A stretch of 64,000 nt of DNA from positions 1-64,000 of the forward strand of contig JAUCBJ010008182.1 in NCBI GenBank assembly GCA_032718475.1, read 5' to 3'. A model generated the notes under the pieces. It had not been told where the DNA came from. It made no database searches and worked only from the letters and a program-made list of their open reading frames with translations. Every line of letters begins with the position of its first letter. Position 1 is the first letter of the stretch. Both the position numbers and the translations under genes were made by a program. This document shows positions 6,572-64,000 of the stretch, in pieces. The stretch comes from Nemertoderma westbladi (Eukaryota; Animalia; Xenacoelomorpha).

Positions 6572-6597
6572 AGAGAGTTTAATCGATTGGGGGAGCG

Positions 6598-25202: not shown

Positions 25203-25259
25203 GTACAGAATTTCAACTCATTTAAATTAACCGCTACAAATTAATTGCATTTGTCTGTA

Positions 25260-25531: not shown

Positions 25532-26922
25532 AGTTAGAAATACTTGTCAAACTCAGCCCTTTTCTATCTGTTTTATCATGGATTCACTACGGTGAACAAA
25601 CTTAAGGGACAGGATGGCCAGCTAGAGATCGGGCCGCAGCAATGAACGGGAACATCGGGGGAATGTAGACGAGAGACAACCCGCAATACCATCTAGAGTT
25701 ATTCGCCCATCGCCTGAAAGGTTAGACAGCGTTCGATCCTTGCTACCTAAGTGTAAGACCAAAAGATCAAAAGGTAGACGTAGTGACACGCTGTAAGCCT
25801 AAAATTACATCATAGGGACTGTACTGTCTTGATTCAGGAAAAACCGCAGTAGACCTTCATATTCCTACGGGGGGAGGGAGAGAGAGCAGAGATACTAGTA
25901 CGCAGATAGGACATAGGCACACCAGTACGAAGCATACAAATTGGTTAGGGTGCAGCAAACTGTACGCTTAACTCTTGCTAAGTACAGGTGCGTCTGTGAC
26001 TATTTGCCGTACAACGGTGTCCATTACATCAGAACTTGTAGGCTAGGGGGGTTGCTGTGTTTTCACCTGAATTGAGATTGTACCGTTCAGGCGGTAGGGC
26101 AGTTTACAGCTAGGCGCAAATAAATTGAGGCTATCAGGGATATACTAACATCTACCGTGTCCCCGCCAACGCCCTAATAGGAAGTTACCCGGACTACCTG
26201 GGTGACTAAAATTCTAGATAGGAGCCAGGATAGCTATTAGTAACTCTACGCCTACAGTAGTAAACTAACACATCTCTTCTTAGTATCAGGGACCTGGTAC
26301 CTAAAATTGCCGAATTCTGGGCGTAGTATTAACCTTATGCCTGAATTTGAGTCCTGGAAATACGCAAGAGGGGAAGGAACCTTATCATTCGTGAGTATTG
26401 GACCTACAAGTTATAAAATTAGAATATTCGTAAAATGCACACCGTACCCAGTAATTATATATGTGAAGGAGCAAAACTGCCTTTGACCATTCAGAATTAA
26501 CACACGCGCATTAGAAATTATTTACACCTCAAAATATATAAAATTAACTTTTGTCCTTACTGCACTTTGCTCGCTAGTTAGACATCTCCAAATCTCTGCC
26601 TGTACCTAGCTAGCGTCCCTTTGCCCAACCATATAAATCACACCGCGGCAAAGTATACGAGCCCCTTAGTCCGTCAGTGAGTCAGCCTGATTTTAGGATT
26701 CGCTGCGCGGGATTTTGTTTTATCGAAGTTTGTCTGCTCGTAGACTGTTTTCTGCCTCACCGGTTATAAGAGATCGATACTGCAATATATTCGCTTACTT
26801 AGAGTTTACTGTTTTGGTGAGAAGGTCGGATTTATGATTTGATTTACAAACTTTACAGTAAGATATTGCAGGTATTGTTACCGTCTCTTCCAATAGTAGG
26901 AATAGGCGTATCTCTTCAATTA

Positions 26923-26933
26923 GTAGGAATATG
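26923..26933 (+). other. Primer-binding-site position, non-tRNA type (GTAGGAATATG)
   Basis: Abuts the LTR end, lacks TGG, and is the exact reverse complement of LTR 25858-25868 CATATTCCTAC. Confidence 0.65.
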
Positions 26934-27647: not shown

Positions 27648-27731
27648 ATGACTGTAATTAGTACCGTTTAGATATAAATACGGTAAACTCGATACTTTGA
27701 CACTCACTTTACTTGACTTACAACTACCGAA

Positions 27732-33700: not shown

Positions 33701-35207
33701 CGACCGTATTGTATACCTAACAGATTCTTGGTCAAACGCTTGCCGAAAACTAGCGTGGATTGTACGTTTTGTACAATACGTTAAAGGCAAACGTGACTTT
33801 ACACGTCGACTTACATTGGCTGAGATTGACAGGTGTGAGATTAAATTAATTCGCCATTACCAACTGCGATATTTCGCGCGCGAATTCACATCTATAAATC
33901 AAGGTCAACCAATCAAGTCGTCACCAATACTGAGTTGGAGTCCGATTATTTATAATGGCTTAATTTGTCATAAATCTCGGCTTCAAAACATTGACTTTAA
34001 CACAAACTTTAGGTACCCAATAATAATACCGCAACATCACGAACTACAACGTGCAATGATACTGGACGCACATTTACATCTGAAACACGCTGGAAGACAC
34101 CACTGTCTTTCCTACTTACGTACTAGATTTGTATTAATTAGACCCAGTAAAGCATTAAGTTCAGTGACACGTACGTGTATTATTTGTAAAAAGGTACATT
34201 CTAGAATAGGTACCCAAGAAATGAGTGAACTACCACAAGCACGACTTCAAGCATTCAGACCACCTTTTACAGAGACTGGAATTGATTGCTTTGGTCCCAT
34301 ACATACGAAACGTGGACGTATACTAGTAAAACGCTGGGGACTGATTTTCACATGTATGTCCAGTAGGGCAGTTCACATTGAACGTGTGATGGATCTTTCC
34401 ACCAACGCGTTTATACTAGCACTGCGGCGATTTATCGCTAGACACGGACTAGTAAAATGCTTGTACTCAGACCAAGGGACAAACTTCGTTGGTGCTCGGA
34501 ATGAGATTGCTAGAGCCTTTAAGAAATTAGATCATGATCAAATCTCGAACGAACTGCAACCTCACAAGATTGTTTGGAAGTTCAATCCTCCAGATAGTCC
34601 TTGGAGAGGCGGAGTCTGGGAGAGACTGATTAGATCTATAAAGACAGCAATGGCAAAGGTCATTCCAGTAAACCACATATTAACAGACGACCAACTGACA
34701 ACATTGTTTGTTGAAATCGAGGCAATACTAAATACTAGACCAATAGTATTAGTACCCGATGACAAACAATCTCAGTTTGCTTTGACACCGGCACACCTGC
34801 TAATGCAGGCACCGACGACTTTGACACCTATTTCTATTCCAATAGAAAGCGACAGCTACGGTAGAAAAGCGTGGAAAATCACGCAACTACTAGCTAACAA
34901 ATTCTGGGAAATATGGCAAAACCATTATTTGCCCTCTATTTCTGCCAGAACAAACTGGTACAATAACACCCGCGCATTAAAGCCGGGAGATCACGTGCTG
35001 TTGGCAGAAGTGAATCTAAAAAGACGCTTCTGGATAACAGGTGTCATTTTAGCCACACATCCATCTATGGATGGAGTGACAAGAACTGTGACGGTACGGA
35101 CAATTGACGGTCGTACAGTAGACAGACCGACTCAACGTCTCGTACTTCTTGAAGAGACTCGTAACGAGTCTGGAGACTACAAATCTCCACCTAATACTAG
35201 TAAATAA
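27732..35207 (+). CDS. BEL/Pao Gag-Pol, copy 1, with in-frame deletion of RT C-terminus and RNase H
   Basis: Triple Cys/His knuckles, protease ILDSAS, RT YVDD, integrase HHCC and D-D-E (GIDCFGP, SDQGTNF, GGVWERL). Jumps from HQLRDCL to NTLTNSK, lacking about 1.25 kb present in copy 2. Confidence 0.93.
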   Translation: MSDKQDYTKNTQTDYDSCDADKSAAEGQQGKTREPTEPTPCASPVHPTGVPDAVVRGDGRTEDFLTVPQPRYRETEMVSSAGSTESVVRSVGGYMAHITRSIGEGQRILDGLTAPMSRFEFYTLQVRVQSKVYKSVDNLVGLQDLARQRQDMDTQLRILEKLMITREKLIQFKSTIRQIQQEQADQLLGESVSDELLQPEEEQELYRLDGQLKHLTDHLRMCGEDVGDWETVPEYTRETSPVRIESAPGILDQSLVSIRSEICEGSIVTSEVARQQQEFHRQRQEMEEQAQLLVMQAAVEEEKLRVANIARISHLQEQAELEAAEVERLEIDIARQAAAAAAEVERRAAAAELERQNAAAELERQNAAAELERQAAAAELERQTAAAELQRERLVSEARAEMKTRQIKAQSAIRQAEFEAQRQQTEQREKTAKLHFELEKKARELANAEEDLDQKARDRSMRSRDGHDLDQLEVRHRQIQERKKEGSVGAPGRERQLVKDVCQRFPQVTHMFAPVTTKEPVSIAGSSDISPIHGATEHRFVIPDEFIPPRATSSPIPKVKVSNPPITDRSSLLTGPALLTTKQVSPPLTPKPITHYAYPMTFRPTRPVVSNAVIRPPNQFTSQSTTSRKTCEPTEQRRTVETRPFNQFTSQSTTSRKTCEPTEQRRSVDDVPKRTVRIRTTQRTRARRPPYPDDSSTSSESDYPKREVFRTGAADEYKRERSDNSFADNPPQNTPTQKALPPAGAIGAQQFADIVNKLARIEERLEEGYTDSSRNSEFEHNRHPKGPQRPVPSNPTSDQGKAPRRENINQTTNQGRETLNVAEEIAKFAARQGLPVQQPPKFSGSSKHWHTFVDYIESQIAVCAFTSREKFNYLLQTLSGEPKRLAETFVGVPDAFELAYDRLTSIYGGTVSMARSVIEELCKGGAITKPVDLLKLADEIKNAITTLRSIGQLDYGNTPTVLLKIIGRLHHRLRREWRKVEYQREERGGFLKLEDVYLLISREAVVETRSNYTDQHIVAEGITLPSSNRQKPQTTSTKTATYATPTESRQFSDGNRVSAPIGTKQTRQQLSADFNGCQYCEHLGKRYIGHKLRGCRQFRELNSEERRLQIRPLDSCWRCTRHGHVRKDCPNTDTCPSCGRNHDGLLHTDSHTPTKRFAREHPEAAARCDTAYRKRESKTTPTFVTHIEDCFSEQSGSSDEESEDDAEYSNGDEQPSIALLTTDQLKGFSVIPIKVTGTKGSKRIYAILDSASSHSYVDEKIADVVTDLRQGKHVSYTVSSMHGQRAIPVTRVKLDLDSLLPKSQHSERERSLLPFRDLTFAATKDFSNLLGPVPEQSLEDRKYFRHLGVPECPVNYRSVAMLIGTDQFNLHQVWETRPSAVVAGNAYACRTPIGWYTRAPVRTLDVSDEEDDVQSTCSLLTTNSIHSFSHDVNHTTLQSTKHHRRVTSMISHKEQLTHKVSLELGEKTNQLEIPSTTDDRLASLPTPITSTVPVDIDDDALKIHQLEQAALDKELTEKTIRWLEQDTAEPGSYEPCMSEQEKQSLKIMEDTIRQTEDGHYEVGMLWRSQSPKLINNYPLALRRLHSIRQRLLKDEKAHLQYNTQMETYLTEGYAIRMTNPERVTDQTYYLPHHYVRHPDKPDKVRVVNDCAALFEGMSLNSELMDGPNMNNYLMGVIMRFRQRQVAFTCDVEAMFHQVKALERDRDSLRFLWYPEGDLSLPPATYQMQVRVFGARDSPNCTMYALKQAARDQKHLYDPEIIRIVERDFYVDDGLQSCDTVERATTVAHQLRDCLNSNTLTNSKAAVSLLERPSIDKQLDTLPDVSPDTLLDSQLDTSNVLTNNKAAVSLLERPCIDKLPILTHLSNHKQGETSCITDVGSTYANVNTGVTLRSRDIPNLQPMMRPGINVGRKISLPKPADPIEFKPPLTIDLQSTDNQGKKTKKDKLLVDPDGSTVNKGILTGGPVGPSSNSKPSKFSIDLPDDVTNTYVDRIVYLTDSWSNACRKLAWIVRFVQYVKGKRDFTRRLTLAEIDRCEIKLIRHYQLRYFAREFTSINQGQPIKSSPILSWSPIIYNGLICHKSRLQNIDFNTNFRYPIIIPQHHELQRAMILDAHLHLKHAGRHHCLSYLRTRFVLIRPSKALSSVTRTCIICKKVHSRIGTQEMSELPQARLQAFRPPFTETGIDCFGPIHTKRGRILVKRWGLIFTCMSSRAVHIERVMDLSTNAFILALRRFIARHGLVKCLYSDQGTNFVGARNEIARAFKKLDHDQISNELQPHKIVWKFNPPDSPWRGGVWERLIRSIKTAMAKVIPVNHILTDDQLTTLFVEIEAILNTRPIVLVPDDKQSQFALTPAHLLMQAPTTLTPISIPIESDSYGRKAWKITQLLANKFWEIWQNHYLPSISARTNWYNNTRALKPGDHVLLAEVNLKRRFWITGVILATHPSMDGVTRTVTVRTIDGRTVDRPTQRLVLLEETRNESGDYKSPPNTSK

Positions 35208-35869: not shown

Positions 35870-37563
35870 ATGGAGAAAGGGATACAAGGAGAGCCGAGAT
35901 GGGGATATGATATCCAAGAGGAAGCGGCAGCTTCATTCGAACGATTTGGAGCAAAAGACTACACTATATTTGGTATAAAGGAATTATCGGAAAGTACAGC
36001 GAAGCTCGCAAAGACAGCAATGCCTTTACTCGAGCAGGATTTAGCATATTTCGAGACGTGTATCTTCGCTGTCTTATCGAAAGACCATCTATGTTTACAT
36101 TGTTACCCTATGAAGGAGAACGTATCGTGGAGATTATGGATGAATCACGGCAGACGCGTGCGCCTATCGGTCACCTTGGTGATGAATTCGAAGTAACTAC
36201 TACGATCGCCGACGATCCTTTAGAGGAACTTCTTGAGATAGAAAGGAACCTCCCGAAGAAATCTCAGACGGAGATTCGACAACTTGAAGCAACAGATGCT
36301 ATAGTTTGTATACAACCTTCAGAAACCTACCAACCCATAGACCCAGACGATTACGATTATAGTATGGGAGGAAGCGCTCGACCGATTGGAGATCTTATAT
36401 ACGAACGAGTGTGGTACCCTGCCAATACGATGTGTAGTAAATGTGGCGTCGCTGGACATCATATGGCAAAGTGCAGTGGAAAGCACATTACTACGACTCA
36501 GCTAATCTGTGGATGGTGTGGGGATCAAGGGTCTCATACCTTTTATACTTGCTGGAGATTTATGGCCCAATGTACTTATTGCAATATAAAGGGACATCGA
36601 GCATCTGAATGCCAACTAAGAGACATACCCTATGAACACGAATCTGTAAAACTCGTGAGGAAATTATTTGACGAGTGGGAAGATTTAGCCGACGAACATG
36701 TATCAGCACAAAGAAGACGGTTTCCGATGAGAGCGCATCTCGGATTTTGGGCGGTAAATCCTCAAACGATGAGGTCGGAAGGATATATCTCCGCTATGCC
36801 CCAATATGACGAACTTATCGAGGTTGTCGATATTTTGCCCCACGACAGCGGATTTCGAGTGGTGCGCGAGTATCTGTTACAGATTCACCCGGATAACAAA
36901 AACACGTGGAATTTTCAGAAAGTCGTAAATCGTATCACGTATGGTGAATTTGATCGTTTCCGAACCGAAAAGCGGAATAAAGGAGCTTGGTTAACCGTCG
37001 CATGGGCGTACCGAGCCGCGTTTTACCATAAACGTATACGAGCGAGCGTATTCGAGGAAGAGGAGGTCCTAGAGGCGACGAATATACCAGCCACTCCGGT
37101 TGCGCCGTCTGCACGTCACCCTCGGGAGGACGGGCAGGGTAGGATCATACGGGTCCAGAAGGTGGGCCAACAATTGAAGAAAATTATTAATGTGGAAGAA
37201 CGCAAGGGAGTTGAGCCGACTATTCGAGTTACTCGGGATACGGTATCACTTCCAAGAGAACCGGTAGGAGGATCGGGACATACACCAGCTGATCAACAGG
37301 GGGCGCAAGCTACTCTTGGGTCTGCGTCGTCCGCCTTTCGCGAGTTCCCAGACGTTCTACCAACTGTAGCGACAACTGATCGGTCACGAGGAATTGGTCG
37401 AGGTTTTGGGATGCCAAATAGACGAATTTGTGAGGAAATAGTCGCACCGTCTCTTAACGTCCCAAGTAAACCAGTGACTCGCCCCATTAGTCCCATATCG
37501 CGAGCAAAGTCACCTGTGCGCAGTTTTCGAGGACGCGGCAGGGCTCGATCTACTAAGCGATAA
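35870..37563 (+). pseudogene. ORF3 copy 1, with ~2-kb internal deletion removing the N-terminal and exonuclease domains
   Basis: First ~48 codons match 49876 onward, then sequence resumes at the equivalent of about 52048 out of frame. The zinc-knuckle half 36058-37563 remains open. Confidence 0.88.
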
Positions 37564-38355: not shown

Positions 38356-40280
38356 TATAGAATTATATTCCCTAAATGCCGTGGATTTTCAAAATTTTAT
38401 TTTATTCGAATTAACTTTGTAAAGATTGCTTTGAGTTCTCATTAGTATTGGTTCTATCTATTGTGCATCTATCGGTCAAGTGGTTCAGTAGCTCAGTTGG
38501 TAGAGCGTTGGAAATTATATGTGTAGTAGGTATCGAGTTCGAATCCTAGTAAGTGCGAATTATTTTTTGTGCAGAATTTCAACTCATTTAAATTAACCGC
38601 TACAAATTAATTGCATTTGTCTGTACCAATAAGGCTGTAGTTATTTGATTGTAACCAATGTCGTGCAAGTTATATATTAGCTGGACCAATAAGCTATCTT
38701 TAAAACCTTGTTAGAACCCATAGAACAATCGAGAATTTTCTCGATTGATTGCAGCACAAATTTAGTATATAAAGGTGCGATTCGTTCATTAGTTATCTCA
38801 ATCTTATATCCCAATCTTTCTCAGATTACCTTATCAATATTCTGTCGTGCTTAGTTCATTCTCAGATTACATTGTATTATAATTGTGTCTTCTGTAATAA
38901 AGTCAGAATATTCTCTCAGCTTTTCTGTTTTACTATGAATTCACTACGGTGAACAAACTCAGGGACAGGATGGCCGGCTAGAGATCGGGCCGCAGCAATG
39001 AACGGGAACATCACGGGAATGTAGACGAGAGACAACCCGCAATACCATTTTAGAGTTATTCGCCCATCGCCTGAAAGGTTAGACAGCGTTCGATCCTTGC
39101 TACCTAAGTATAAGACCAAAAGATCAAGAGGTAGACGTAGTGACACGCTGCAAGCCTAAAATTACATCATAGGGACTGTACTGTCTTGATTCAGGAAAAC
39201 CCACAGTAGACCTTCACATTCCTACGGGGGGAGGGATAGCGCAGGCAGATACTAGTACGCAGATAGGACGTAGGCACACCGGTACAAGGCATACACATTG
39301 GTTAGGGTGCAGCAAACTGTACGCTTAACTCTTGCTAAGTACAGGTGCGTCTGTGACTATTTGCCGTGCAACGGTGTCCATTGCATCAGAACTTGTAGGC
39401 TAGGGGGGTTGCTGTGTTTTCACCTGAATTGGGATTGTACCGTTCAGGCGGTAGGGCAGTTTACGCTAGGCGCAAATAAATTGAGGCTATCAGGGATATA
39501 CTAACATCTACCGTGTCCCCGCCAAAGCCCTAATAGGAAGTTACCCGGACTACCTGGGTGACTAAAATTCTAGATAGGAGCCAGGATAGCTATTAGTACC
39601 CGTACGCCTACAGTAGTAAACTAACACATCTCTTCTTAGTATCAGGGACCTGGTACCTAAAATTGCCGAATTCTGGGCGTAGTATTAACCTTATGCCTGA
39701 ATTTGAGTCCTGGAAATACGCAAGAGGGGAAGGAACCTTATCATTCGTGAGTATTGGACCTACAAGTTATAAAATTGGAATATTCGTAAAATGCACACCG
39801 TACCCAGTAATTATATATGTGAAGGAGCAAAACTGTTTTGACCGTTCAGAATTAACACACGCGCGTTAGAAATTATTTACACCTCAAAATATATAAAATT
39901 AACTTTTGTCCGTACTGTGCTTTGCCCGCTAGTTAGACATCTCCAAATATCTGCCTCTGTACCTAGCTAGCGTCCCTTTGCCCAACCATATAAATCACAC
40001 CGCGGCAAAGTCTACGAGCCCCTTAGTCCGTCAGTGAGTCAGCCTGATTTTAGGATTCGCTGCGCGGGATTTTGTTTTATCGAAGTTTGTCTGCTCGTAG
40101 ACTGTTTTCTGCCTCACCGGTTATAAGAGATCGATACTGCAATATATTCGCTTACTTAGAGTTTACTGTTTTGGTGAGAAGGTCGGATTTATGATTTGAT
40201 TTACAAACTTTACAGTAGGATATTGCAGGTATTGTTACCGTCCCTTCCGATAGTAGGAATAGGCGTATCTCTTCCAATTA
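38356..40280 (+). repeat. LTR2 (1925 bp), diverged from LTR1 and LTR3
   Basis: Same termini, many substitutions and a strongly different segment after the TATA box. Pol III cassette retained at 38482-38568. Confidence 0.94.
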
Positions 40281-49213: not shown

Positions 49214-49875
49214 TTAGGAGTTTACAAATAAATTTCCACTTACCTGTACACCGTAGTAAGGACAGCGGTAGAATTCCATTGTCTTTATATGTGAACATTG
49301 AGGGTAGTACCCTTATGTGTCACATAGGATCGGGATTTGTAGGTATAAGAAATGGAATTCTACTTGGAACTCACAATATTGAGACATTTTCGAAAATTTT
49401 AGACAATCCATTTGGATTTGAAAAATTTTTAAAATTTTCTCCAGTGAATAGATTTCAGGGTACAGTCGGGTGGAACTTAAAATTAGAGAAACAAGAGAGG
49501 AAGACTTGCGAGCCTTTCTTAAAATTTTAATTAAATTTTACACGGTCTTGTTTCAATAAGTTATGTCAAAATAGACTCCCCTATATATTTATTACTAATT
49601 CTTGACTGCTTATTTTCTGATAATAGTTTGGGATCAAAAAGTGAGTATTTTAGACTCACGGCCAGTTTAGCCCAAATTCGTTTTTACTTCGGCAAAAAAT
49701 TTTAGATAAGAAGCAGCGTGTCATTAAAGAAACCTTAGATCTTAGGCTATGGGTAGGAGGTTAGAGCGTTGTCGAGCCCAAAGGGCAGACGAAACTCTCA
49801 CGTCTCCTCACAACTAACTACAAACTCTGTTGTATTCCCTCTAGTAGTAATGATTATGTAACTACACCCCTAATT

Positions 49876-52800
49876 ATGGAGAAAGGGATACAAGGAGAGC
49901 CGAGATGGGGATATGATATCCAAGAGGAGGCAGCAGCGCCATTCGAAAGATTTGGAGCCAAGGACTACACTATATTTGGTATAAAAGAATTATCGGAAAG
50001 TACAGCGAAACTCGCGAGAACTAAATATGACTCGAACGTATTAAAGAGAAGGCAAAACGCATTAAACGAAAGAATCGAAAGTTTGCGCCAAACCTTCAAC
50101 GAACTTTACCCGTACGACGCTTTGTGTGATACGGGAGACATTAGCGAAGACCCCGATACTGAAATTAGTCGTTTGTATCATACCATGCAATACCTAAAGG
50201 CGCACGAACCTATGCCCACGGTAAGAGATGAATTCGATGGAATGCATCTTTACAGACGAACTCGAGGGGACGATAGAGAAACCAAGGAAGCATTTTCAGT
50301 TTATAAACTTTATTATCAATGCGGTTCTTGTATGCGCGAACAACGAAATGCGATTCCGATGCGTTTGAATAAGGAAAATCCCGAACCGATATTGGCGAGG
50401 TGTTCGAATCATCAACAACTACGCTACCAGGAAGGAGGGTATCCTTTATCGAATCCATATCATTCATTTGCTATGACCGGACCAAAGGCGGGAGAAACTG
50501 TCATTTACCCACCTAAGGTTGTTGAACCCGATGTATTTGAACTTACGCTGGACGAGGCGAATCAGTCAACCCGCGAAAAGAAAGAAGCTCTTAGCCTATA
50601 CAGAGCCTACAAGGCTTTCGAGAAAGGTGAGATGGAAGAATGGGGTGGAAGACTCGCGAGCCTACCTTGCCATTGGACGTCACACGATCAAACTTCAGCT
50701 AAGGAGATGACACCGGAAGTTTTCGAGAGCATAAACTTTGCTCAAAACGTTATTCAGAGACTACAGATTGCATCCCCGGAGAGGCCAAGAGAAATGCAAC
50801 CGTATAGTACTTCAACTACGAAACCATTGAGTACGACACTCAATTTCCCTATTAGTATACCAGTCCGACAGGATACGACGTACGAAATACCCATCGTGGA
50901 TCATCCAGAAATCATTTCAAACTTGGAGTTTCTTCCTGCAGTTGTTTTCAGCGATATGAGCAAGATATATGATTTACGTAGACATATTACTCAAAAGGTC
51001 GTGTACAACGTTCCACCTCATATTCAAGATTTCAAGGAACTGGAAAGAGCTGGTGCCGATATAGCTCCGAGTAATCTGAAAGGATATCTAACCAAGACGA
51101 TTCGTTTATGGATTGGAACCGGAACCTTCGAGTCGGATACAGATATTGCCGCAGATTGGCGAGGTAAGGTTATTCGTTTCGAAGATGATAAGGACATAGA
51201 GAAGATTTGGCAACCTTCGGAAGAATTGTTGGATGAATGGACTAGGACGTTTAGATCGTTTCAGGAAAACGGTTATATGTTTTACGATAACGAGGGCGGC
51301 AGTCATCAGCAGAGTTTGACTTCTAAGACTATACAGATTAGAGCGGCGGACGGAGTCCTGCACGTTTTTAGTAGACAGAGGAGCGACAAACGAATGCCGA
51401 TACCTCCAGCGAATACAAAGCGACACCATCTTATCACCGATATAGTAAAGAAGATGGACCAAGCTTGTAATATTGACGCTAGAATGCTACCGAAGATGGT
51501 AAGAAACATGATTTTAGATAAAACTGTTGTAAAGGTTGGATCAGGAGTAAGGGAGGATTTAATTAGCGACTTCGCCGGCATGACGGACAGCGATGACCGA
51601 CTACCGACACCATACGTCGACACTCGACCTCTTATTCTGTGGTCTATAGAACAGGGATATTTTCGTGAGTATAATACTCAGAAGACTGGAACTGGATACA
51701 TTTCCTACCTGTTATTCAATTGGGATTATAAGGAAGGTAAGAGAAACAAGTATATTGAAACTTATGGAGAAGGTGATACTCCAGATATGAGTGAGTTTGA
51801 ATCACAGCTTAAATGGAGAGGATGCGTGTATTGGGCTATTACGTCACCTCCAAGAGCGGTCTTACAATATTATTTAGCAATAGAGTCGTCAGTGAATGTT
51901 TGCCTAATCGCCGACATTGTGTCTCGGACTCTCAAAAGACATCCACTTTGTCTCGGAGAAGATCATACGTTCTACATGGAAGGGAGAATTCGTACCGACG
52001 TGTTTAGATGATTCCTTGAACCCTTCTACAACTCCGACGCTCAGTGTAATGCCTTTACTCGAGCAGGATTTAGTATATTTCGAGACGTGTATCTTCGCTG
52101 TGCGGGATCTCTTATCGAAAGACCATCTATGTTTACATTGTTACCCTATGAAGGAGAACGTATCGTGGAAATTACGGATGAATCACGGCAGACGCGCGCG
52201 CCTATCGGTCACCTTGGTGATGAATTCGAAGTAACTACTACGATCGCCGACGATCCTTTAGAGGAACTTCTTGAGATAGAAAGGAACCTCCCGAAGAAAT
52301 CTCAGACGGAGATTCGACAACTTGAAGCAACAGATGCTATAGTTTGTATACAACCTTCAGAAACCTACCAACCCATAGACCCAGATGATTACGATTATAG
52401 TATGGGAGGAAGCGCTCGACCGATTGGAGATCTTATATACGAACGAGTGTGGTACCCTGCCAATACGATGTGTAGTAAATGTGGCGTCGCTGGACATCAT
52501 ATGGCAAAGTGCAGTGGAAAGCACATTACTACGACTCAACTAATCTGTGGATGGTGTGGGGATCAAGGGTCTCATACCTTTTATACTTGCTGGAGATTTA
52601 TGGCTCAATGTACTTACTGCAATATAAAGGGACATCGAGCATCTGAATGCCAACTAAGAGACATACCTTATGAACACGAATCTGTAAAACTCGTGAGGAA
52701 ATTATTTGATGAGTGGGAAGATTTAGCCGACGAACATGTATCGGCACAAAGAAGACGGTTTCCGATGAGAGCGCATCTCGGATTTTGGGCGGTAAATCCT

Positions 52801-53601
52801 CAAACGATGATGTCGGAAGGATATATCTCCGCTATGCCCCAATATGACGAACTTATCGAGGTTGTCGATATTTTGCCCCACGACAGCGGATTCCGAGTGG
52901 TGCGCGAGTATCTACTACAGATTCACCCGGATAACAAAAACACGTGGAATTTTCAGAAAGTCGTTAATCGGATTACGTATGGTGAATTTGATCGTTTCCG
53001 AACTGAAAAGCGGAACAAGGGAGCTTGGTTAACCGTCGCATGGGCGTACCGAGCCGCGTTTTACCATAAACGTATACGAGCGAGCGTATTCGAGGAAGAG
53101 GAGGTCCTAGAGGCGACAAATATACCAGCCACTCCGGTTGCGCCGTCTGCACGTCACCCTCGGGAGGACGGGCAGGGTAGGATCATACGGGTCCAGAAAG
53201 TGGGCCAACAATTAAAGAAAATTATTAATGTAGAAGAACGCAAGGGAGTTGAGCCGACTATTCGAGTTACTCGGGATACGGTATCGCTTCCAAGAGAACC
53301 AGTAGGAGGATCGGGACATACACCAGCTGATCAACAGGGGGCGCAAGCTACTCTTGGGTCTGCGTCGTCCGCCTTTCGCGCGTTCCCAGACGTTCTACCA
53401 ACTGTAGTGACGACTGATCGGTCACGAGGAATCGGTCGAGGTTTTGGGATGCCAAATAGACGAATTTGCGAGGAAATAGTCGCACCGTCTCTCAACGTCC
53501 CAGGTAAACCAGTGACTCGCCCCACGAGTCCCATATCGCGAGCAAAGTCACCTGTGCGCAGTTTTCGAGGACGCGGCAGGGCTCGATCCACTAAGCGATA
53601 A
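49876..53601 (+). CDS. ORF3 (~1241 codons, one in-frame TGA at 52009-52011): unknown N-domain, DEDDy-like 3'-5' exonuclease, three zinc knuckles, RG/RS tail
   Basis: The 711-aa and 504-aa ORFs share a frame with a single stop between them. Motifs FYDNEG, TIQIRA, LPKMVRNMILDKTVVKVGSGVREDL, YVDT, YYLAIES; CSKCGVAGHHMAKC, CGWCGDQGSHTFYTC, CTYCNIKGHRASEC. Confidence 0.8.
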
Positions 53602-54270: not shown

Positions 54271-56203
54271 TATAGAATTATATTCCCTAAATGCCGTGGA
54301 TTTTCAAAATTTTATTTTATTCGGATTAACTTTGTAAAGATTGCTTTGAGTTCTCATTCGTATTGGTTCTATCATTTGTGCATCTATCGGTCAAGTGGTT
54401 CAGTAGCTCAGTCGGTAGAGCGTTGGAAATTATATGTGTAGTAGGTATTGAGTTCGAATCCTAGTAAGTGCGAATTATTTTTTGTACAGAATTTCAACTC
54501 ATTTAAATTAACCGCTACAAATTAATTGCATTTGTCTGTACCAATGAGACTGTAGTTATTTGATTGTAACCAATGTCGTGCAAGTTATATATTAGCTGGA
54601 CCAATAGCTATCTTTAAAACCCCGTTAGAACCCATAGAACAATCGAGAATTTTCTCGATTGATTGCGGCACAAATTTAGTATATAAAGGTGCGATTTGTT
54701 CATTAGTTATCAATCTCTATCTCAATCTTATACATTCATTATCTCAGTGCATTCTATCTATATCTTTCTGATTTCATTAGTTATTATCTTATCTGTTTGA
54801 TTTTGTAATAAAAGTTAGAAATACTTGTCAAACTCAGCCCTTTTCTATCTGTTTTATCATGGATTCACTACGGTGAACAAACTTAAGGGACAGGATGGCC
54901 AGCTAGAGATCGGGCCGCAGCAATGAACGGGAACATCGGGGGAATGTAGACGAGAGACAACCCGCAATACCATCTAGAGTTATTCGCCCATCGCCTGAAA
55001 GGTTAGACAGCGTTCGATCCTTGCTACCTAAGTGTAAGACCAAAAGATCAAAAGGTAGACGTAGTGACACGCTGTAAGCCTAAAATTACATCATAGGGAC
55101 TGTACTGTCTTGATTCAGGAAAAACCGCAGTAGACCTTCATATTCCTACGGGGGGAGGGAGAGAGAGCAGAGATACTAGTACGCAGATAGGACATAGGCA
55201 CACCAGTACAAAGCATACAAATTGGTTAGGGTGCAGCAAACTGTACGCTTAACTCTTGCTAAGTACAGGTGCGTCTGTGACTATTTGCCGTACAACGGTG
55301 TCCATTACATCAGAACTTGTAGGCTAGGGGGGTTGCTGTGTTTTCACCTGAATTGAGATTGTACCGTTCAGGCGGTAGGGCAGTTTACAGCTAGGCGCAA
55401 ATAAATTGAGGCTATCAGGGATATACTAACATCTACCGTGTCCCCGCCAACGCCCTAATAGGAAGTTACCCGGACTACCTGGGTGACTAAAATTCTAGAT
55501 AGGAGCCAGGATAGCTATTAGTAACTGTACGCCTACAGTAGTAAACTAACACATCTCTTCTTAGTATCAGGGACCTGGTACCTAAAATTGCCGAATTCTG
55601 GGCGTAGTATTAACCTTATGCCTGAATTTGAGTCCTGGAAATATGCAAGAGGGGAAGGAACCTTATCATTCGTGAGTATTGGACCTACAAGTTATAAAAT
55701 TAGAATATTCGTAAAATGCACACCATACCCAGTAATTATATATGTGAAGGAGCAAAACTGCCTTTGACCATTCAGAATTAACACACGCGCATTAGAAATT
55801 ATTTACACCTCAAAATATATAAAATTAACTTTTGTCCTTACTGCACTTTGCTCGCTAGTTAGACATCTCCAAATCTCTGCCTGTACCTAGCTAGCGTCCC
55901 TTTGCCCAACCATATAAATCACACCGCGGCAAAGTATACGAGCCCCTTAGTCCGTCAGTGAGTCAGCCTGATTTTAGGATTCGCTGCGCGGGATTTTGTT
56001 TTATCGAAGTTTGTCTGCTCGTAGACTGTTTTCTGCCTCACCGGTTATAAGAGATCGATACTGCAATATATTCGCTTACTTAGAGTTTACTGTTTTGGTG
56101 AGAAGGTCGGATTTATGATTTGATTTACAAACTTTACAGTAAGATATTGCAGGTATTGTTACCGTCTCTTCCAATAGTAGGAATAGGCGTATCTCTTCAA
56201 TTA
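54271..56203 (+). repeat. LTR3 (1933 bp)
   Basis: Near-identical to LTR1, followed by TSD CTCGA. Pol III cassette at 54397-54483. Confidence 0.95.
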
Positions 56204-59069
56204 CTCGATGATACGACCTGTCTGCCACCGCTTACGTGGAAGATCTGATTCCACAATAAGGACCATGTCTCCGGCGCTGACGTTTTCTTGCTGCGCAAAC
56301 CACTTGGTTCGAAGTTGTAGCGTAGGCAGATAATGTTTTTCGAAATGGTCAGCGAAACAACGGGATAATAACTGCATAAGTTGCCAAGTTTGTCGGCAGT
56401 ATTTGTCTCCGTCCGTGATTTCCGATTGTGGGAGCATGGCTACAGGTTTCATCAGTAGGAAATGCGCGGGTGTTAGCGCTTCTAGGGAGTCGGGACTCGA
56501 TGAGACTGGCATAAGCGGTCTCTCGTTAAGATAGGCAGCGATTTCTTCCATTAACGTCCGCAAAAGTTCGTCGGTGAGATACACGCGGCAGGGCACTATA
56601 AAGTGAAATGCGGTCTTCACGCTCGCTCCTTATTAATCTCTCCCAACTTCCTCCCCACCAAGGGGCATCGGCGGCGTTGAAGGTCCAGCTAGATGCTGTT
56701 ACCCTTAGCTGATCGTCCACCTGTCTTTGGTTCCAATCTTTAACATAAGCTTTGATCTCATAATTGGCGCCAATGAAGTTCGTTCCCTTATCAGATCTCA
56801 TCGTGTTACTAGTTCCAAAGCGAGCGATCTGTCGTCGTAAGCTTAATAGGAAGCTGTTGGTAGATAAATCGTTCACCATATCGAGATGGATAGTTCTACA
56901 AGTCATACAAACAAAGATGACACACCATCTCTTGACTATAGTCCTAGCACGATATACTTCAATAGGGCCAAATAAATCCACACCGGTATTAGTAAAGGGT
57001 GGTTCATAGAAGCTTACTCGTTCCCTAGGTAATTCTGCCTCTCGCTGTGTTAAAGGCCTACTGAATGCTTTCCTACAGGGTATACAGTTCCTAAGAACTT
57101 GGTTCAGAGCTCTACGGGGTTTATGGAAATAATAGCGAGTTCGAATTTCGCTAAGAACTCGTTCTCTACCAGCATGGTAAAGCCTACTTTGAACATCTAC
57201 AATCATCTTGATTTGTATTTCAAGATTTCTAATGAGTTTGGGAAACTTAGTGTCAAAGGATAATGGAGCATTAGTTAATCTCCCTCCAACACGTATTAAC
57301 CCATCTATCATTGTGCTAGAGAAACGACCCCTTAAGCGCGTCTGTGGATTTCTCAACAACAGGAAATACTTATCGGAATCTTCATAGCATTGCAGGAGTC
57401 TCAGTATCTGCTTATTGGTTTCTTCATGCTCTTGATAACTGAGCTTTTCCGTCAGAAACCTATCCGATACTTTATATTTGGGAAGATCTTTAATAGCATG
57501 GACCTGCGTGGATGTCAGTGGAGCGGTATCACTAGCGATCTTCGTCCTGGAGTAGTGATGATGGAAGCATCGCTTCAAATACACAACGGCCTTACAAAGC
57601 CGATTCCAGGAGCTATAGTGATTTATTGCTCTCTGCAGGAGAGGTGAGAGTTCCTGCGAGACGTCTGGTGTTCCAGATTTCCAGTCTCTTTCTCTAATTT
57701 CCACAACAGATTTATTTGTGGCGGGGAAGTTTAGATCCACAGCGTCATCCCCGGAAATGTGTAGTACAGACAGATCTATCACGGGTTTAAATAACTTTGA
57801 TTTACTCGTTCGGGTTTTAGGTTTGACTTTCTCCGCTCCCTTGGCTTGTCTAATCTCAGCCGTGGTGAGATGAGGAGGCCATTCATCCTCTTCTTTACTT
57901 AGGAAGTCGGGTCCTCCTAACCAGTCTGGAGTATCTATCAGTTCTTGAGGAGTTGCTCCTCTGGAGGCGATGTCGGCTGGATTAATCGTCCCAGGGCAAT
58001 GTCTCCATTGATCTACATTAGTGCGACTAAGTATAATGGCTACTCTGTTGGTAACGAAGACGCTGAACTGACAGACTTCATTGGTTATATACTCCAAAAC
58101 GAGTAAAGCATCAGTCCAATAGACAGTTTTCTCCAGTGGATAGTCGATCTGTTCTGTTACATTCCGGCCGATGGCTGTAGCGTATAGAGCCGCCTTTAAC
58201 TCCGCTCGAGGAACTCGTAATTTATTATTTATCAAGGCCTTAGAGGTAACCAAGGCAACTTTGATTCCATCCGGAGTTTCAACCCTCAGGTAGGCTACTA
58301 TACCTATTCCCATATCGCTGGCGTCTCCAAACACATGGAGTTGATAGGAAACGTGGGGAGAACGTGACCAAAATATGAACGGGAAATCCTAAAGTTGTCG
58401 ATGGATGGTAGAGATCTTCCCATTTCATCCACTTCTTTAGTAGTTCTCCCTTAAGTGGATCGTCCCACGAGTGGTTTTCAAGCCACATTTGTTGCACTAA
58501 ACTCCGAGCAACCAATATAACTGGGCTAATAAATCCCAATGGATCGAAATAAGTGCTCAGGATACTTGAACAAATCCGTTAAGTTCGAACTGGATTATCT
58601 CGCTGTTTTAGCTGGAAAAACAGGATATCTCTCTCCGTGTCCCATTTCAAACCAAGCATCTTGGTTTCCGGAAGATCGTCTTTGATAAGGTCTAGATCTT
58701 TAACACCTCGGTCTTCTACGGGGATCGATTCCAGAAACTCACGGGAGTTATTAGTGAATTTGGTTAGTCGAAATCCACCATGTTTCAAGCACTCTACCGT
58801 TCCCTTAGCAACATCAATGGCTTCTTCCACCAATGGGAGGGACTTTAAATTGTCGTCCATGTATATATCCCGTTTGATGTTGTCGATAACCGCTTTAGAG
58901 AAGGCGTCTCGGTTGTCATCAGCAGTGGTACGCACTACTGAACAAGCGTTCGAGGGGCTCGAGATGATCCCGAAAGCCTGGATGGTCATCCAGTACTCCA
59001 CCAGTTTTTGGTTGAGGTCTCCTTCAGGCCACCACAGAAATTGTAGGCTGTCTCGATCCCTATCCAGCG
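56204..59069 (-). pseudogene. Host BEL/Pao pol (RT, RNase H, integrase), frameshifted, different family
   Basis: YMDD, KMLGLKWD, FDPLGFISP, FGDAS, PRAEL, NPADIASRG, GVDLFGP, SDKGTNF, GGSWERL, LTPAHFL across several frames. Interrupted at 59070. Confidence 0.93.
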
Positions 59070-61360
59070 TGTTACGGTATATGGCGCTGTATCCATATTA
59101 TTAGTCATCATGCAGTATGCAATATTAGTCCGTTATGCAGTATGCAATATTAGTCCGTTATACTGTACGTAATATTAGTCCATTGTGCAGCATGATATTT
59201 TAGATAAGGCATAATAACGCAGTGGTATTTAGGTAGGGAAATCAAAACGCCTATATATTTGAAACCATCCATTTTGTATAGTATGTAGCCCTACCTACGT
59301 AATTTTGTATTAGGATATATGTAGATAGTTCCAGGGTAGCGAGTTTATTCGGACCCTGGATTTTGTGCTTGCTGATATTAGTTTGATAGGGCCAGCATAT
59401 AGGGACGCCGTCCTGGCCATTCAGCAGCCAGAGACGTGATCCATTACCATATATGGTAATAATTTGAGCAATAGGGCTACAATCCGGCCTCCTTATTGGA
59501 TTAACTGCTTCCAGGTTGGTCTAATGCTAGCATGGACTGGAGAGCCAATAGGAGAGCGATTGAGTCACCCTATTGCATCATCCCATATGGATCACCTATA
59601 AATTGGCGGTGTGCCGGTAGAGCCTTACTGTTTTGACCTGTTATCAATCGATTCAACCTTCACTGCTGTTGTACTTGCTGAGCTGTCTCTATTCAATTTT
59701 GACGGATTTTAGAGTATTTTTGCAATTTGATTAATTTCTTGAAATGATTTGCTAGTGCGATTACTCTTGCTTGTGTTTCTCAATTAATTCCTTCGATTAC
59801 TGCTAATTACAACTGAACTATGATTTCTACCTTTTGATTAATGGTTCTATGTGATTCTTTTCTGCGCAATAATCCTAAGGGATTTCTGTGACTGTCAGAC
59901 TTTGTGATTTGCATGCGCCGCTACGGTAGCTATTAGCATAATGGAGGGCTAAGGCGCCAGTGGGCGGTGGGCACATCGGGGGGTTGAGCGACTAAGGGAG
60001 AGCGGAGGATTCAAAAGCGGGCAACGCTGGCGGGGGTCAACGTTGCGGTCGGGCAGTTTGGACTGTGGGTTGGAGACCGCTCGCCGGTACAGTAATTAGG
60101 GGGCTGATGATCCAAGGTTTTGTCTCTATTTAGTATTAGGGGGCAGGAATTGGGTTAGTTAGGAAGCCTAGATGTACCCGGGAGGGGCCTGCATACCTTA
60201 CAGTAAGTAAGTAAGTAAGTAAGTAAGTTGCGAGTAAGTAGATTGCGAATTAGTCAATTGCGAATTATTATGTTGCGAATTATATAATTGCAGATTGTAT
60301 AATTGCAAGTCGTGCTATTGTGATCTGTGATTGCTGACGCTGATTGGTGTGTTACTAAAGTGTGCCTATGATTACGAATGCTTAGATAGGCGCTCTTTTC
60401 CCTTTGATTGATTCTATCTCTTAGTTTACCGTAAATAATTACTGATTAGGTCAAAGTAATACAGTATTTTAGGCTGTTACATATTTGTGACTGTAATTAA
60501 TTAGTAAAATTAAGAATTAGTACGCAGCATAGCGGAGAGTAGCTAAGGTAATAATTAGAGTACCGTAAACTATTCACGTTGAGCGGTTATTTGAATTAGC
60601 GGGCAATAAGCTAGATCGCAATAGTTAGTACGCAAGACACTAGTAAGTTGCTGGCCTAAAGCCAGCTGCAGGCAAGTTTAGACCCAGAGCGGTAACACCT
60701 ACGAAAGACATTGTACTGTACCAATTTTGATTTATTTAAATATTCTCGCATTCACACATTTCGTTAGGGAACCCTCCGTATTCGCGATTAGAAAAGACGT
60801 AGGCATTAGCGTACTTCAACAGTAGTAAAATTAGGCGTAAGAATATACTCTGAGTGCAAAGCCCCTCGCACTCGTCTTAAGTAAGCTTAGGGAGCCGACT
60901 CGGGTTTATTGTTTTGGTTATTCCCGCGTGGCTCATAGATTCGAACAGTTAGCTCTCTATCGAGCGATCGGTAGAGAAAGGAACAAGCGATTTTGCAGGA
61001 GCTGTGTAAATTTAGTAAAATATATTAGCGGACGGCAGATTAGCGCCATCCAACGGTAAGTAGCGGTTTTGTATTTAGCAACCCTTACAATTTAGTAATA
61101 GCACGCTCCTGATCCCCTTTACTTAACAGTAGAGCAGTCTTTGTGTCTTATTGGTTAGGCGAGAGCTCATTAGGTTGGCAGAGAGGTATACGGGTATTTG
61201 TCTGTTCAACAGTTCTGCTGTTAGTATAGGTGTCGCGGTTGTTTAACAGTAAGGTATGCCTGGTTTTGCTGTACTGCGTACAGTAAATACAAATTAGATT
61301 ACTGTATTAGGCACTGTACTGCGTACAGTAGAACATCGAGTGTATTCTTAGGCTGATTGG

Positions 61361-62923
61361 TTTTTTTTTTTTTTTTTTACTCAAAAGCCTCCATATATTA
61401 TAATATTAACAAACAATAATTCGAATATAAAAACGCACCAAAACAAGTACAAATATAACCCACCACCAGCTGATTCAAACTGTTACCTAGCAACAATACA
61501 AACAATACAAATTGGTTCAGTACCCATCACCAGTCTGCCACTCTGCCACTGCCAGTACCCAACAAACCCGCCAGACCTCTAACTTCTAAGCCGTCCCGGG
61601 GTCCGAGTCCGCGTTCGCCCACACAATGGACGCGTCCGCCACCGCTGCCCGCACCGGTCTTCTAGCGGCCGACCGAAACCCACGGAGGCACATCAGGGAC
61701 GACCGGAGTAAGGCGAAGTTGATGCGTCGCCGCACCCACGCTACCGACTCCGGGTAGGGAACCCGTCGTTTCTCCGACAGCCTCAATGCCAGCCGCTTCA
61801 CAAACTGCTTCGCAGCCGGCGCCATGCCCCCGAAAGCGGAAAATATGAGGGGGGTGAAGGTTGAGTGCTCAACCTCACGGATCCGCTCCTCGTATCTCCG
61901 GATCTTCCTCGCCTCGTGATGGAGGTGGGCGGCGTCCAGCGACATCGCTGCGTTGGTGTCCGCCAGCGGGTTGAACACCGACACGTCGATAAACATCTTC
62001 TGGAAGCGGTTGCCCCAGAATCCGCTTACCGACACGTCGAGTCTCGCCTGCTGGTCCGTCGAGGTGGACCGGAGAGTGAAGGACTCCCCCGTCAGCGGCT
62101 GGAGCATCGGCTCGACAGCCACGTTGTGGGCCACCTCAGTCAGGGAGTCGGCGACGAAATCGCGGATCTCGTTGTGTCTGATTGAGGGGAACCCCCCAGT
62201 GGGACACGACAGAACGTGGGAAGGAGAAAATCGCGACCCACAGACACAACGAGAGGGAAGATTTCTTGGCGACCAACCGTACCGGAGACAAACTGCGTCA
62301 CGGAACTCTTCCTTGGACAGGTGAGTGTCGTGCAACGTTAAGGGTTTGGTATTTAGCCAGGCAGACGCACCTTTCTCAGTAGTTAGTCCGCACAAATTGT
62401 GCATTTCACTACTTAATTTGTCATAAACCTCCTCCTTTTTAGCTTTCGCTACCACAGAGGAGGAGGCTGCAACTAACTTCGCTACGTGCGTCTGCTCTTC
62501 CCTAATCGTCACCATTGACTCACCCTCCATGGAGATGAACGGGTCGCAGATCCTCCGGGAGTTCTCGTATTGGGGTCGTAGATCCTCGGGAACCGGGATC
62601 CCCAGCCCCCCATCCCGAACCGGTAGCGACAGCAACTCGCGTTCCGTCGCCGATACCGCCGGCCGGTCAATGATCCGGCAGAGGCACTGTTCCACGGCCT
62701 CCTCCAACTTCCCAAAAGAATCCGTGGCCCCTGGGACGACGCGCGCCAAGAACCGCCACCGGCAGGAGAGACCGAAGGCGAGGCCGGCGTACGCGCAGTG
62801 CGGGTCGACTGCGGCGATGGTGGCGAGGCGATCCACGTCGGCGGCGAACTCCTCCACCTTCCGCTCGGTGTACTCGCGCTGGAACTCCTCGGTCCCGATT
62901 ACTCCGCCGAGGCTTAGTCTTAG
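61361..62923 (-). mobile_element. 5'-truncated CRE-like non-LTR retrotransposon with poly(A) tail
   Basis: T18 at 61361-61378. 15-bp TSD TCTTAGGCTGATTGG at 61346-61360 and 62924-62938. GC-rich coding body. Confidence 0.9.
61586..62912 (-). CDS. CRE-like ORF C-terminus: RT thumb, zinc finger, restriction-like endonuclease
   Basis: LGGVIGT, LPVRDGGLG, FRDAVCLRYG, CVCG..H...C, RHNEIRD, RLDV, FIDVSV, KIRRY, FTPLIFSAFGGM. Confidence 0.88.
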
Positions 62924-64000
62924 TCTTAGGCTGATTGGTAGTATCACTGTTACTGCCGTAACAGTAAGGTATGTGTTATTGTCTGCTGTAGGCCTACCGC
63001 GTACAGTAGGACATAGAGTATATTCTTAGGCCGTGAAGATTTAGATTTACTGATACTTCGTAACAGTAAGGTATGCATTATTGGCTGTTGCTTGCAGCGG
63101 TCAATAGAGTATTCTTAGGCTGATAGTAGTATCATAGTATTAGGCAATAAGTTAGAGCACGTGATCGTCTGCTGTAGGCTATAGGCTAGCGTACAGTAAG
63201 ACATTGAGTTTATTCTATTAGGTTGTTAGTTTATATTCCTGTATTCACTGGCTGCGTACACTAGTACAGTAGTACATTAGGCTGATTGCTGTTACTGCGT
63301 ACGGTAGAAGGACATTTGTTTGCCGTACCACACACAGTATCATTAGGCTGTTAGGTTGGTGTACTGTTTTACTTACTGTACTGCATACAGTGGATGTACG
63401 GTAGTGCGTTTTGCTAATTGCGAATACAGCAGTTCCTTAGGCCTTAGGGCAAACAGTAATTAGTAAGTTTTTTGAAAATTTTAGCTAGGTTTGCGAGAAT
63501 TCAGTTTTCGGTCAAAATTATTTGTAAAATTCTAGAGTTTTGTACCGGTATGTTAGGTAACCGTTTAGTTATTTTATACCATCTGGAGATACATGGCAAG
63601 ACGGAACTTCTGAGTTTGGGGTTCGTGTGGGTCTGCGGGTTCGGTTTGCAATCAGCGAAGGGACTGAATCTTTGGACGCGGACGTGGAATCTCACAGCAA
63701 ACAAGGTTAGTTGTTCTGTTGGCACCACTGTGTTTGTGGAAGCAGTAAAAAATTACCGGTTGTTTAACTGCGAAGCTGAACTCAATTTATTAGTTAGGAT
63801 ATTTAGGTTTAGCCGGCCATGGTTTTTGAATCGCTCAAGTTAGAGAGAGAGTTAGAGAGAGTCGCAACCCGAAGATGTAGCCACGCGCTAGTGGATACAT
63901 ATAATATTTGAAATTAAAATTACGTTGATTAGAGCTATATATAAAATTAGAAATATTCGGGTGGCAAGTTTATTTTGAATATTTTGTATTAGATTCAAGG

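Follow-up and report, generated by a model that had tools for sequence, protein, structure and literature searches.

The window analysed here, a stretch of 64,000 nucleotides from Nemertoderma westbladi (contig JAUCBJ010008182.1, positions 1 to 64,000), contains two families of LTR retrotransposons; unless the minus strand is named, the features described lie on the + strand. The 5′ LTR of family 2 has a TG start at 59070 (TGTTACGG) and, in its shortest version, ends at 61248 (59070–61248), while its 3′ LTR lies beyond the window. The 5′ flank CAGCG (59065–59069) is, from the sequence, the expected target-site duplication, the partner of which is also beyond the window, and the insertion site is inside a minus-strand BEL/Pao pol frame that is interrupted at this flank. 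TAACA is found at 61248, 62963 and 63065, with GTAAGGTATG directly after each of these candidate ends; an earlier sequence-only reading had given this start and these ends, and all of its coordinates hold. The terminal inverted match of the LTR is 5 nt for the end at 61248, 8 nt for 62963 and 7 nt for 63065, and the two best matches among 20 AACA ends both carry a self-complementary primer binding site (PBS). The length of the LTR is at least 2179 bp, and contig depth does not discriminate between the three ends. These ends are not independent, being copies of a single degenerate repeat. Further degenerate end-plus-GTA units lie within 61270–63470 (at 61282, 61327, 63005, 63195, 63268, 63303, 63336, 63400 and 63455) and are read from their sequence as relics.

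Between the candidate ends, 1578 bp is accounted for by a 5′-truncated non-LTR insert on the minus strand (61361–62923), with a poly(A) tail, a 15-bp duplication (61346–61360 and 62924–62938) and a frame at 61589–62914. No Pfam match was obtained for this frame; the atlas neighbours of the insert are sponge and cnidarian clusters, one of them with RVT_1 in 15% of its members. By motif resemblance, the insert may be CRE-like. From 63066 to the end of the window, the + strand has no coding frame of at least 150 aa. Judging from sequence features, family 2 is probably a BEL/Pao element: its ends have the form TGTT...AACA, its end/PBS junction is like those of the BEL/Pao loci L044 and L069, and the 13 letters around the fixed end of L069 are identical to those around 62963.

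The main feature of the family-2 LTR is the segment 60190–60201, a putative self-primer, the reverse complement of which is found, without a mismatch, behind the candidate ends. It pairs over 11 nt with candidate PBS 1 (61249–61259), over 10 nt with candidate PBS 2 (62964–62973, behind the end with the best terminal inverted match, where contig depth is low) and over 12 nt with candidate PBS 3 (63066–63077). The pairing begins at offset 0 behind all three ends, and since base 60202 (A) mismatches the LTR-terminal A, it stops exactly at the LTR edge. Both the 12-nt complement and its stop at the CA edge had been noticed in the sequence-only reading and were confirmed. So was the spacing of 1.0–1.3 kb without the insert: subtracting 1578 bp gives 1047, 1184 and 1286 nt from the primer to the ends, compared with 1054 nt in family 1. 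When the 30 nt behind each family-2 end were shuffled, the observed pairing length was reached in 2, 8 and 0 of 1000 cases (61248, 62963 and 63065, respectively). Leader 11-mers with a complement in their own LTR occur at 2 of 890 positions in family 2 and at 7 of 8240 in family 1. Over the whole window, the 10-mer with one mismatch allowed is no more frequent than by chance (5 versus 4.04 expected), so the pairing signal is positional.

Family 1 shows the same anatomy, and three LTRs together with a target duplication fix the end of its LTR. LTR 1 (24990–26922, 1933 bp, TA...TA ends) has copies at 38356–40280 (93.7%) and 54271–56203 (99.8%), and the 5-bp duplication CTCGA is found at 24985–24989 and 56204–56208. 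The putative self-primer of this family (25858–25868), with AATAAA 251 nt downstream, pairs over 11 nt at offset 0 with the PBS at 26923–26933, a length reached in 3 of 1000 shuffles. Thus, at least 10 nt complementary to the LTR, starting 0–5 nt behind the 5′ LTR, which is a criterion of self-priming, is present in both families (10–12 nt in family 2 and 11 nt in family 1). At about 26885–26904, the family-1 LTR itself contains a degenerate end-plus-PBS copy; the earlier reading had remarked that this unit is repeated in both families. The Gag-Pol frame (27717–35204) is of the BEL/Pao type, with Pfam DUF1759, DUF5641 and a weak Integrase_H2C2; it is without an RNase H stretch. It has 1083 homologues, and DUF5641 is present in all 120 of those listed. 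On the phylogenetic tree, family 1 has a long branch, and grouping it with the self-pairing relatives described below is not possible; the BEL/Pao integrase piece interrupted by family 2 was left out as too short. The two families retain no clear similarity at the nucleotide level: 4 of 100 shuffles were as good as the LTR-to-LTR local alignment, which is at best marginal, and 14 of 100 were as good as the leader alignment, which is not significant. However, since the families share their architecture and family 2 is probably BEL/Pao, descent is more likely than convergence, and the description of family 2 as "unrelated" is unsupported.

Variation among other copies of family 2 concerns both partners of the pairing. 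Two PBS variants, with three (variant 1) and five (variant 2) changes in the first 10 nt, were recorded in contig letters from other copies before the primer-site variants were examined. Three of the eight loose-end rows listed at 60184–60202 (57 further rows exist) are exact 10-nt complements of these variants, a match made across short contigs pooled from copies (3–8 contigs per row, agreement 0.65–0.88) and not copy by copy on single molecules. The variant-1 complements are loose ends at 60184 (X1) and 60192 (X3), and the variant-2 complement is at 60192 (X1); these rows come from two different studies. The 63065 end type was found with both PBS variants. Two further primer-site variants are without a PBS partner among the matches listed. 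Over 8 nt, the units at 63195 and 61327 agree with the complement of two such further variants. No RNA data set was listed among the contig sources for 59070–61340, one run being RNA only by guess. Within 60060–60207, only five places have other letters at a level of at least 1% among copies. The primer variants retain only one 5′ C and the three bases opposite the GTA with which the PBS begins. The primer form CATA....TAC, proposed earlier as common to both families, was therefore over-read, as CATA is not conserved in family 2.

Distant BEL/Pao relatives were sought among metagenome loci, of which 21 of 79 were covered by the PBS survey. Of the nine loci with ends fixed by two copies, five have a site that pairs over 11–15 nt with the LTR of the same element (0 of 100–200 shuffles in every case), three of these only across a GT-AG junction. 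TGG-type sites are present in two of the nine (L027 and L037), and neither site type was found in L007 and L050, the end of L007 being doubtful (not CA). L075 and the 3′ LTR of L044 resemble both window families in having a complement that is uninterrupted in the DNA and so requires no intron. The pairing is exactly 11 nt long in 9 of 11 distinct self-pairing relatives, and A(A/T)TAAA lies 14–90 nt downstream of the primer in four of the eight relatives tabulated. L061 was excluded because its repeat lies away from an LTR end, and no LTR end could be resolved in L053, L056 and L071. A splice-built primer was rejected for the window families: the best junction match has 7 nt in family 2 (40–53 of 100 shuffles), that of family 1 has 9 nt (5 of 100), and both are below the contiguous ones. 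The earlier idea of a conserved mechanism rather than chance draws support from the matched variants, the family-1 anatomy and the self-complementary sites of distant loci.

We suggest, with a probability of roughly 55%, that the segment 60190–60201 primes reverse transcription instead of a tRNA, in the manner of Tf1 self-priming. It is a likely primer because exact pairing of 10–12 nt directly behind a likely LTR end is combined with matching variants at both sites. The genomic RNA would start at, or a few bases from, 60190–60192, so that the model predicts an exact RNA 5′ end, and its first ~11 bases would fold onto the PBS about 1.05–1.3 kb downstream. The RNase H of the element would cut behind the C at 60201, leaving a 3′-OH exactly at the LTR edge. 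The reverse transcriptase would then copy the long R-U5 back as far as the cut before jumping to the R copy at the RNA 3′ end, and this jump would restore the primer segment in new LTRs. With no host RNA constraining them, the primer and the PBS would be free to change together. Occasional duplication of the end-plus-PBS unit would leave relics, and the use of a downstream unit would lengthen the LTR.

Several other features of the family-2 LTR can be noted. A second 10-nt complement, which spans the LTR end and the first six PBS bases, lies at 59623–59632 (duplex −16.0 kcal/mol); it may be due to chance, and this region is replaced in some copies, while family 1 has no counterpart of at least 9 nt across its LTR end. 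A hairpin is predicted at 60135–60201 (−22.5 kcal/mol, z −2.06), beginning upstream of the putative primer and extending over it, and shows few variants among copies; its family-1 counterpart has a z of −0.01. Directly behind the primer is an AGTA repeat with a donor-like GTAAGT motif (60202–60228), and the loose ends at 60184–60202 continue differently there. Spliceosomal cleavage at GTAAGT as the source of the primer 3′ end was rejected because this sequence differs among copies and is absent in family 1. No A(A/T)TAAA is present in the family-2 LTR.

Among the alternatives, the one that survives best, though unlikely, is self-priming by an internal primer. Transcription would start about 30 nt behind a TATA-like box (at ~59625; ~25430 in family 1), and the primer would be cut 430–570 nt inside the RNA, or an upstream intron would place it close to the cap. 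Pattern scanning revealed such a box, a candidate rival promoter, at 59597–59603, 594 nt upstream of the putative primer, and a comparable one in family 1, 459 nt upstream; family 1 also retains an AATAAA 342 nt upstream of its primer within an otherwise diverged stretch, and the relatives have introns within the LTR. However, the sharp 11-nt mode suggests that an RNA 5′ end limits the pairing, and splice junctions improve it in neither family. The predicted primer–PBS helix forms in some trials with the RNA start at the primer but is not robust there, dropping to 0.02 in the two trials that used a different 3′ end. It exceeds 0.13 in none of eight folds with at least 30 nt of upstream sequence; this is weak evidence, a hint only, because folds of 1.1–1.7 kb RNA are sensitive to the ends chosen.

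It is rather improbable that the helix acts as a switch, structural or regulatory (packaging, dimerisation or PBS masking), and that the true primer is a host RNA not recognised here, for instance a tRNA fragment. Long-range complementarity of another kind does exist: an imperfect inverted repeat of the end-plus-PBS unit 63005–63130 lies at 60790–60860, with a 14-nt exact core (60838–60851 and 63015–63028) and a duplex of −49.7 kcal/mol, computed without a control. Half-tRNA primers are known in Ty1/copia, as one survey describes (PMC6317226). One host RNA, however, could not follow a PBS that varies at 3–5 of 10 positions among copies, whereas the LTR segment shows variants matching the PBS and its pairing ends precisely at the edge of the LTR. 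At the gathering score, the window yielded neither a tRNA gene nor an Rfam family, and none was detected in either LTR region at E up to 1. Scans of viral contigs found no relative. It is very improbable that the complement lacks a function and arose when template switching or fold-back copying carried PBS sequence into the LTR: the region around the end is unstable, with repeated duplications, but the position and length of the complement are the same in two non-alignable families, and copying at the DNA level would not produce the complements that relatives have only across a GT-AG junction.

The sites of both families start with GTA, not TGG; judged by motif alone, no TGG lies within 0–6 nt of the three family-2 ends or the family-1 end, and outside the insert no family-2 end with a terminal inverted match above 3 nt has a TGG-type site. 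The normal TGG tRNA PBS that would have spoken against the sequence-only reading is thus absent from every plausible end. A chance match, with the true end and an ordinary tRNA PBS elsewhere, is hardly credible: the 3′ LTR is beyond the window and 27 CA-TGG sites are present, but the shuffle controls (0–8 of 1000), the variants matched at both sites, the PBS behind the two best of the 20 AACA ends and the end letters shared with L069 all argue against it.

Self-priming has been demonstrated for Tf1, and some Ty3/gypsy and Ty1/copia lineages are predicted to use it; we found no paper on BEL/Pao self-priming. Tentatively, a large animal BEL/Pao branch may have given up tRNA priming for self-priming, mostly with an intron-spliced LTR primer. 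The window families would be intron-free, long-LTR forms with co-changing primer and PBS, and their stacked end-plus-PBS units a record of former primer sites, the reuse of which stretched the LTR beyond 2 kb. If self-priming is true, such elements would presumably escape control via the supply of tRNAs or via their fragments, and annotation that relies on the PBS would misread them. Because copies of one family differ in their primer/PBS pair, one genome sequenced with long reads would allow a direct test of the pairing.

According to the ICTV profile of Belpaoviridae, replication is tRNA-primed and poorly understood, with an 18-nt PBS for tRNA-Arg or tRNA-Gly and LTRs of 0.2–1.2 kb (PMC8742986). 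Family 1 resembles this group in its BEL/Pao Gag-Pol domains and 5-bp target-site duplication, whereas the window sites begin with GTA and the LTRs are 1933 bp and at least 2179 bp long. The Tf1 primer is the first 11 bases of Tf1 RNA, cut by RNase H between bases 11 and 12 (PMC7175516, PMC4600332). Tf1 and Tf2 of Schizosaccharomyces pombe, Tj1 of S. japonicus and the Tf1/sushi group of Ty3/gypsy are described there as having, like the window families, a PBS complementary to their own LTR with 11-nt pairing. Unlike them, family 1 and its relatives are BEL/Pao, the window LTRs measure 1.9 kb and at least 2.2 kb, with the primer more than 1 kb from the PBS, and the end-plus-PBS units occur repeatedly; in the window families, the primer would be the RNA 5′ end. 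A survey of plant elements, both Ty1/copia and Ty3/gypsy, took complementarity of at least 10 bp located 0–5 bp behind the 5′ LTR as its criterion of self-priming (PMC6317226). The window families would be classed as self-priming in the same way, with BEL/Pao as a third superfamily, and, if the reading is true, tRNA-independent priming would occur in all three LTR superfamilies.

The family-2 LTR-like segment begins with TGTTACGG at position 59070, is preceded by CAGCG and splits a minus-strand BEL/Pao pol. GTAAGGTATG stands directly after each of its three TAACA ends (61248, 62963 and 63065). The putative primer at 60190–60201 is the exact reverse complement of the 11, 10 and 12 nt, respectively, behind these ends, counted from the first base; the next base is mismatched. 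The sequence-only reading, with its coordinates, three ends and complement stopping at the LTR edge, was borne out. A non-LTR insertion of 1578 bp, with a poly(A) tail and a 15-bp duplication, sits between ends 61248 and 62963; without it, the primer-to-end spacing is 1047, 1184 and 1286 nt. When the 30 nt behind the ends were shuffled, the observed pairing length was matched in 2, 8 and 0 of 1000 trials, respectively, and of 890 leader positions, 2 give an 11-mer whose complement occurs in the LTR. A 10-mer count over the whole window, with one mismatch allowed, was unremarkable. We regard the self-complementary primer binding site (PBS) as a real feature.

Among 20 AACA ends in 59220–64000, the longest terminal inverted matches belong to 62963 (8 nt) and 63065 (7 nt). 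CA-TGG sites, taken as a sequence pattern only, number 27, and none of the 17 outside the insert has a terminal inverted match longer than 3 nt. The same 10-nt PBS is common to all three candidate ends. Contigs from four sequencing runs reveal family 2 to be multi-copy. Five of the 15 joints listed (of 41) skip from 61252–61326 to 63078–63104, which indicates other copies with a single end-plus-PBS unit; back-jumps in contigs point to additional copies with several units.

Two PBS variants are found in these contigs behind a conserved end and the first four PBS bases, one with changes at PBS positions 5, 7 and 9 (run X3), the other with changes at positions 5 to 9 (runs X1 and X3). They were recorded first, and the primer region was examined afterwards by comparing contigs of the four runs with 60060–60207. 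This gave 76 loose-end rows, 19 of them listed, including eight at 60184–60202; each row pools 3–8 contigs with an agreement of 0.65–0.88, and X1 and X2 are one sample. Among the rows listed, the exact 10-nt complement of the first variant is carried by two of the eight (X1 60184 and X3 60192) and that of the second by one (X1 60192), the match being drawn across contigs, since no single contig spans both primer and PBS. One further row is too short to be assigned, two retain the primer of the window but differ after it, and two are further variants without a PBS partner among the rows listed; the complements of these last two agree over 8 nt with the sequence that follows the relic ends 63195 and 61327. 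The CATA start, proposed as common to the primers of both families, is not kept within family 2. Upstream of the primer, only five places vary at 1% or more; the sequence behind it is replaced wholesale.

Family 1, whose Gag-Pol is of the BEL/Pao type, has three LTRs (24990–26922, 38356–40280 and 54271–56203) within a CTCGA duplication, which fixes its end without recourse to pairing. The 11 nt behind this end are complementary to 25858–25868, 1054 nt upstream (shuffles were as good in 3 of 1000 trials). The true end is the downstream unit, and the upstream end-plus-PBS unit is a relic inside the LTR. Both families have an LTR of about 2 kb with the primer some 1050 nt away from its end, a PBS at offset 0 starting with GTA, and duplicated end-plus-PBS units. 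Their alignment is not clear, as shuffles were as good in 4 of 100 trials for the LTRs and 14 of 100 for the leaders. The families had been called unrelated; the lack of a clear alignment stands, but given the shared layout unrelatedness is not established, and an old common ancestry is the likelier explanation.

The family-1 element is a tandem with three LTRs, enclosed by one 5-bp target site duplication, with outer LTRs 99.8% identical and the middle one at 93.7%; its LTR termini are TA...TA instead of TG...CA. Unit 1 has the PBS, but the RNase H stretch and some 2 kb of the extra coding region are missing; unit 2 is without the PBS and the first 550 nt of the leader, and its RNase H region is disrupted. 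By eye, motifs resembling the A-box and B-box of a tRNA, with a T run behind them, are seen at 25108–25200, in the upstream part of all three LTRs; neither ARAGORN nor Rfam made a call there. Behind pol lie a frame of 748 aa (49765–52008), with no Pfam or atlas match, and a second of about 530–550 aa (52012–53598; copy at 35911–37560, without a Pfam match) with CCHC-knuckle-like motifs by eye. A third BEL/Pao element on the minus strand (56209–59069 and from 24984 downward) is the target of both the family-1 and family-2 insertions; below 24984 it continues with its integrase end and a probable 3′ LTR, and its PBS is outside the window. The window also contains a phospholipase D exon with a PLD_C domain (907–1458), a LINE-type endonuclease–RT frame (3800–6733, minus strand), another RT frame (22022–23548), and nested inverted repeats plus a pair with long G/C runs (7741–8231 and 14676–15097), possibly small DNA transposons.

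A metagenome scan using a 29-protein alignment yielded 79 BEL/Pao loci, of which 21 were checked for a PBS; two LTR copies fix the end in nine. Two of these nine have a TGG-type PBS (L027, L037), two a contiguous 11-nt LTR complement (L044, L075; shuffles 0/200), three a complement of 11–15 nt that only a GT-AG junction brings together (L014, L046, L069; shuffles 0/100), and two neither type (L007, L050). Six more distinct loci with 11-nt junction matches carry lower weight: the ends of L002, L011, L023 and L032 were chosen among 3–6 candidates (shuffles 0–1/100), and those of L003 and L013 by eye. L012 and L070 repeat L011 and L069; L053, L056 and L071 gave no usable end, and L061 was excluded. 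The pairing length is exactly 11 nt in 9 of 11 distinct self-pairing loci. Junction-type loci (L002, L003, L011/L012, L013, L014, L023, L032, L046 and L069/L070) have 4–10 nt of the complement on the upstream side. In the integrase tree (80 rows), both TGG rows belong to a single 14-row group (support 97/92), which contains none of the self-pairing rows; family 1 forms a long branch and has no placement. We infer that family 2 probably belongs to BEL/Pao from its termini, its layout and 13 letters at its 62963 junction that are identical in L069 around the fixed end. The 5′ LTR piece of L044 (100–326) has an acceptor-like TTTCAG where the 3′ LTR (6693–7103) has the contiguous complement, so that the 3′ copy looks like a version without the intron. 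No donor lies on this contig, which may be chimeric. Among GT-AG junctions in the LTRs of families 1 and 2, none pairs better than the contiguous match. GTAAGT behind the family-2 primer was ruled out as a conserved splice donor because the sequence there differs wholesale among copies.

Self-priming like that of the yeast retrotransposon Tf1, which primes with its own RNA 5′ end, is the best reading. It fits the predominance of 11-nt pairing, the end of the pairing at the LTR boundary, the variants that match between primer and PBS, and the signals of poly(A) type that follow the primer in family 1 and four of eight relatives. We give self-priming in either form a probability of about 0.8; a primer at the RNA 5′ end is slightly favoured. 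Alternatively, transcription would start upstream and the primer would be internal, in line with a TATA-like box ahead of the primer in each family (by 459 and 594 nt), an AATAAA upstream of the family-1 primer, and no A(A/T)TAAA found in the family-2 LTR. The predicted primer–PBS helix reached a probability of 0.77–0.99 in 3 of 14 folding trials, all with a start at most 10 nt from the primer, and stayed at or below 0.13 in all eight with 30 nt or more of upstream sequence. As the value was 0.02 in both trials with an altered 3′ end, and 0.0 when family 2 was folded with 10 nt ahead of the primer, folding gives a weak hint of a start at the primer.

The ICTV profile describes BEL/Pao elements with an 18-nt PBS for tRNA-Arg or tRNA-Gly and LTRs of 0.2–1.2 kb (PMC8742986). 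PMC6317226 names Tf1/sushi as a group with reported self-priming, and Tcn1 and TAR as predicted cases. The accessible portions of PMC3601003, PMC5443660 and PMC8220671 contain nothing on BEL/Pao priming, and a term search of PMC3118150 and PMC554778 gave no mention of PBS or tRNA. Among the openly accessible papers listed, none concerns self-priming in BEL/Pao. A nematode BEL/Pao family reportedly has an element-encoded tRNA-like primer. The family-2 locus contributes population-level matched variation of primer and PBS, as well as a form with long LTRs, no intron and a stack of end-plus-PBS units. The known mechanism of Tf1 serves as the model; here the feature sits, for family 2 probably, in BEL/Pao, a superfamily described as tRNA-primed.
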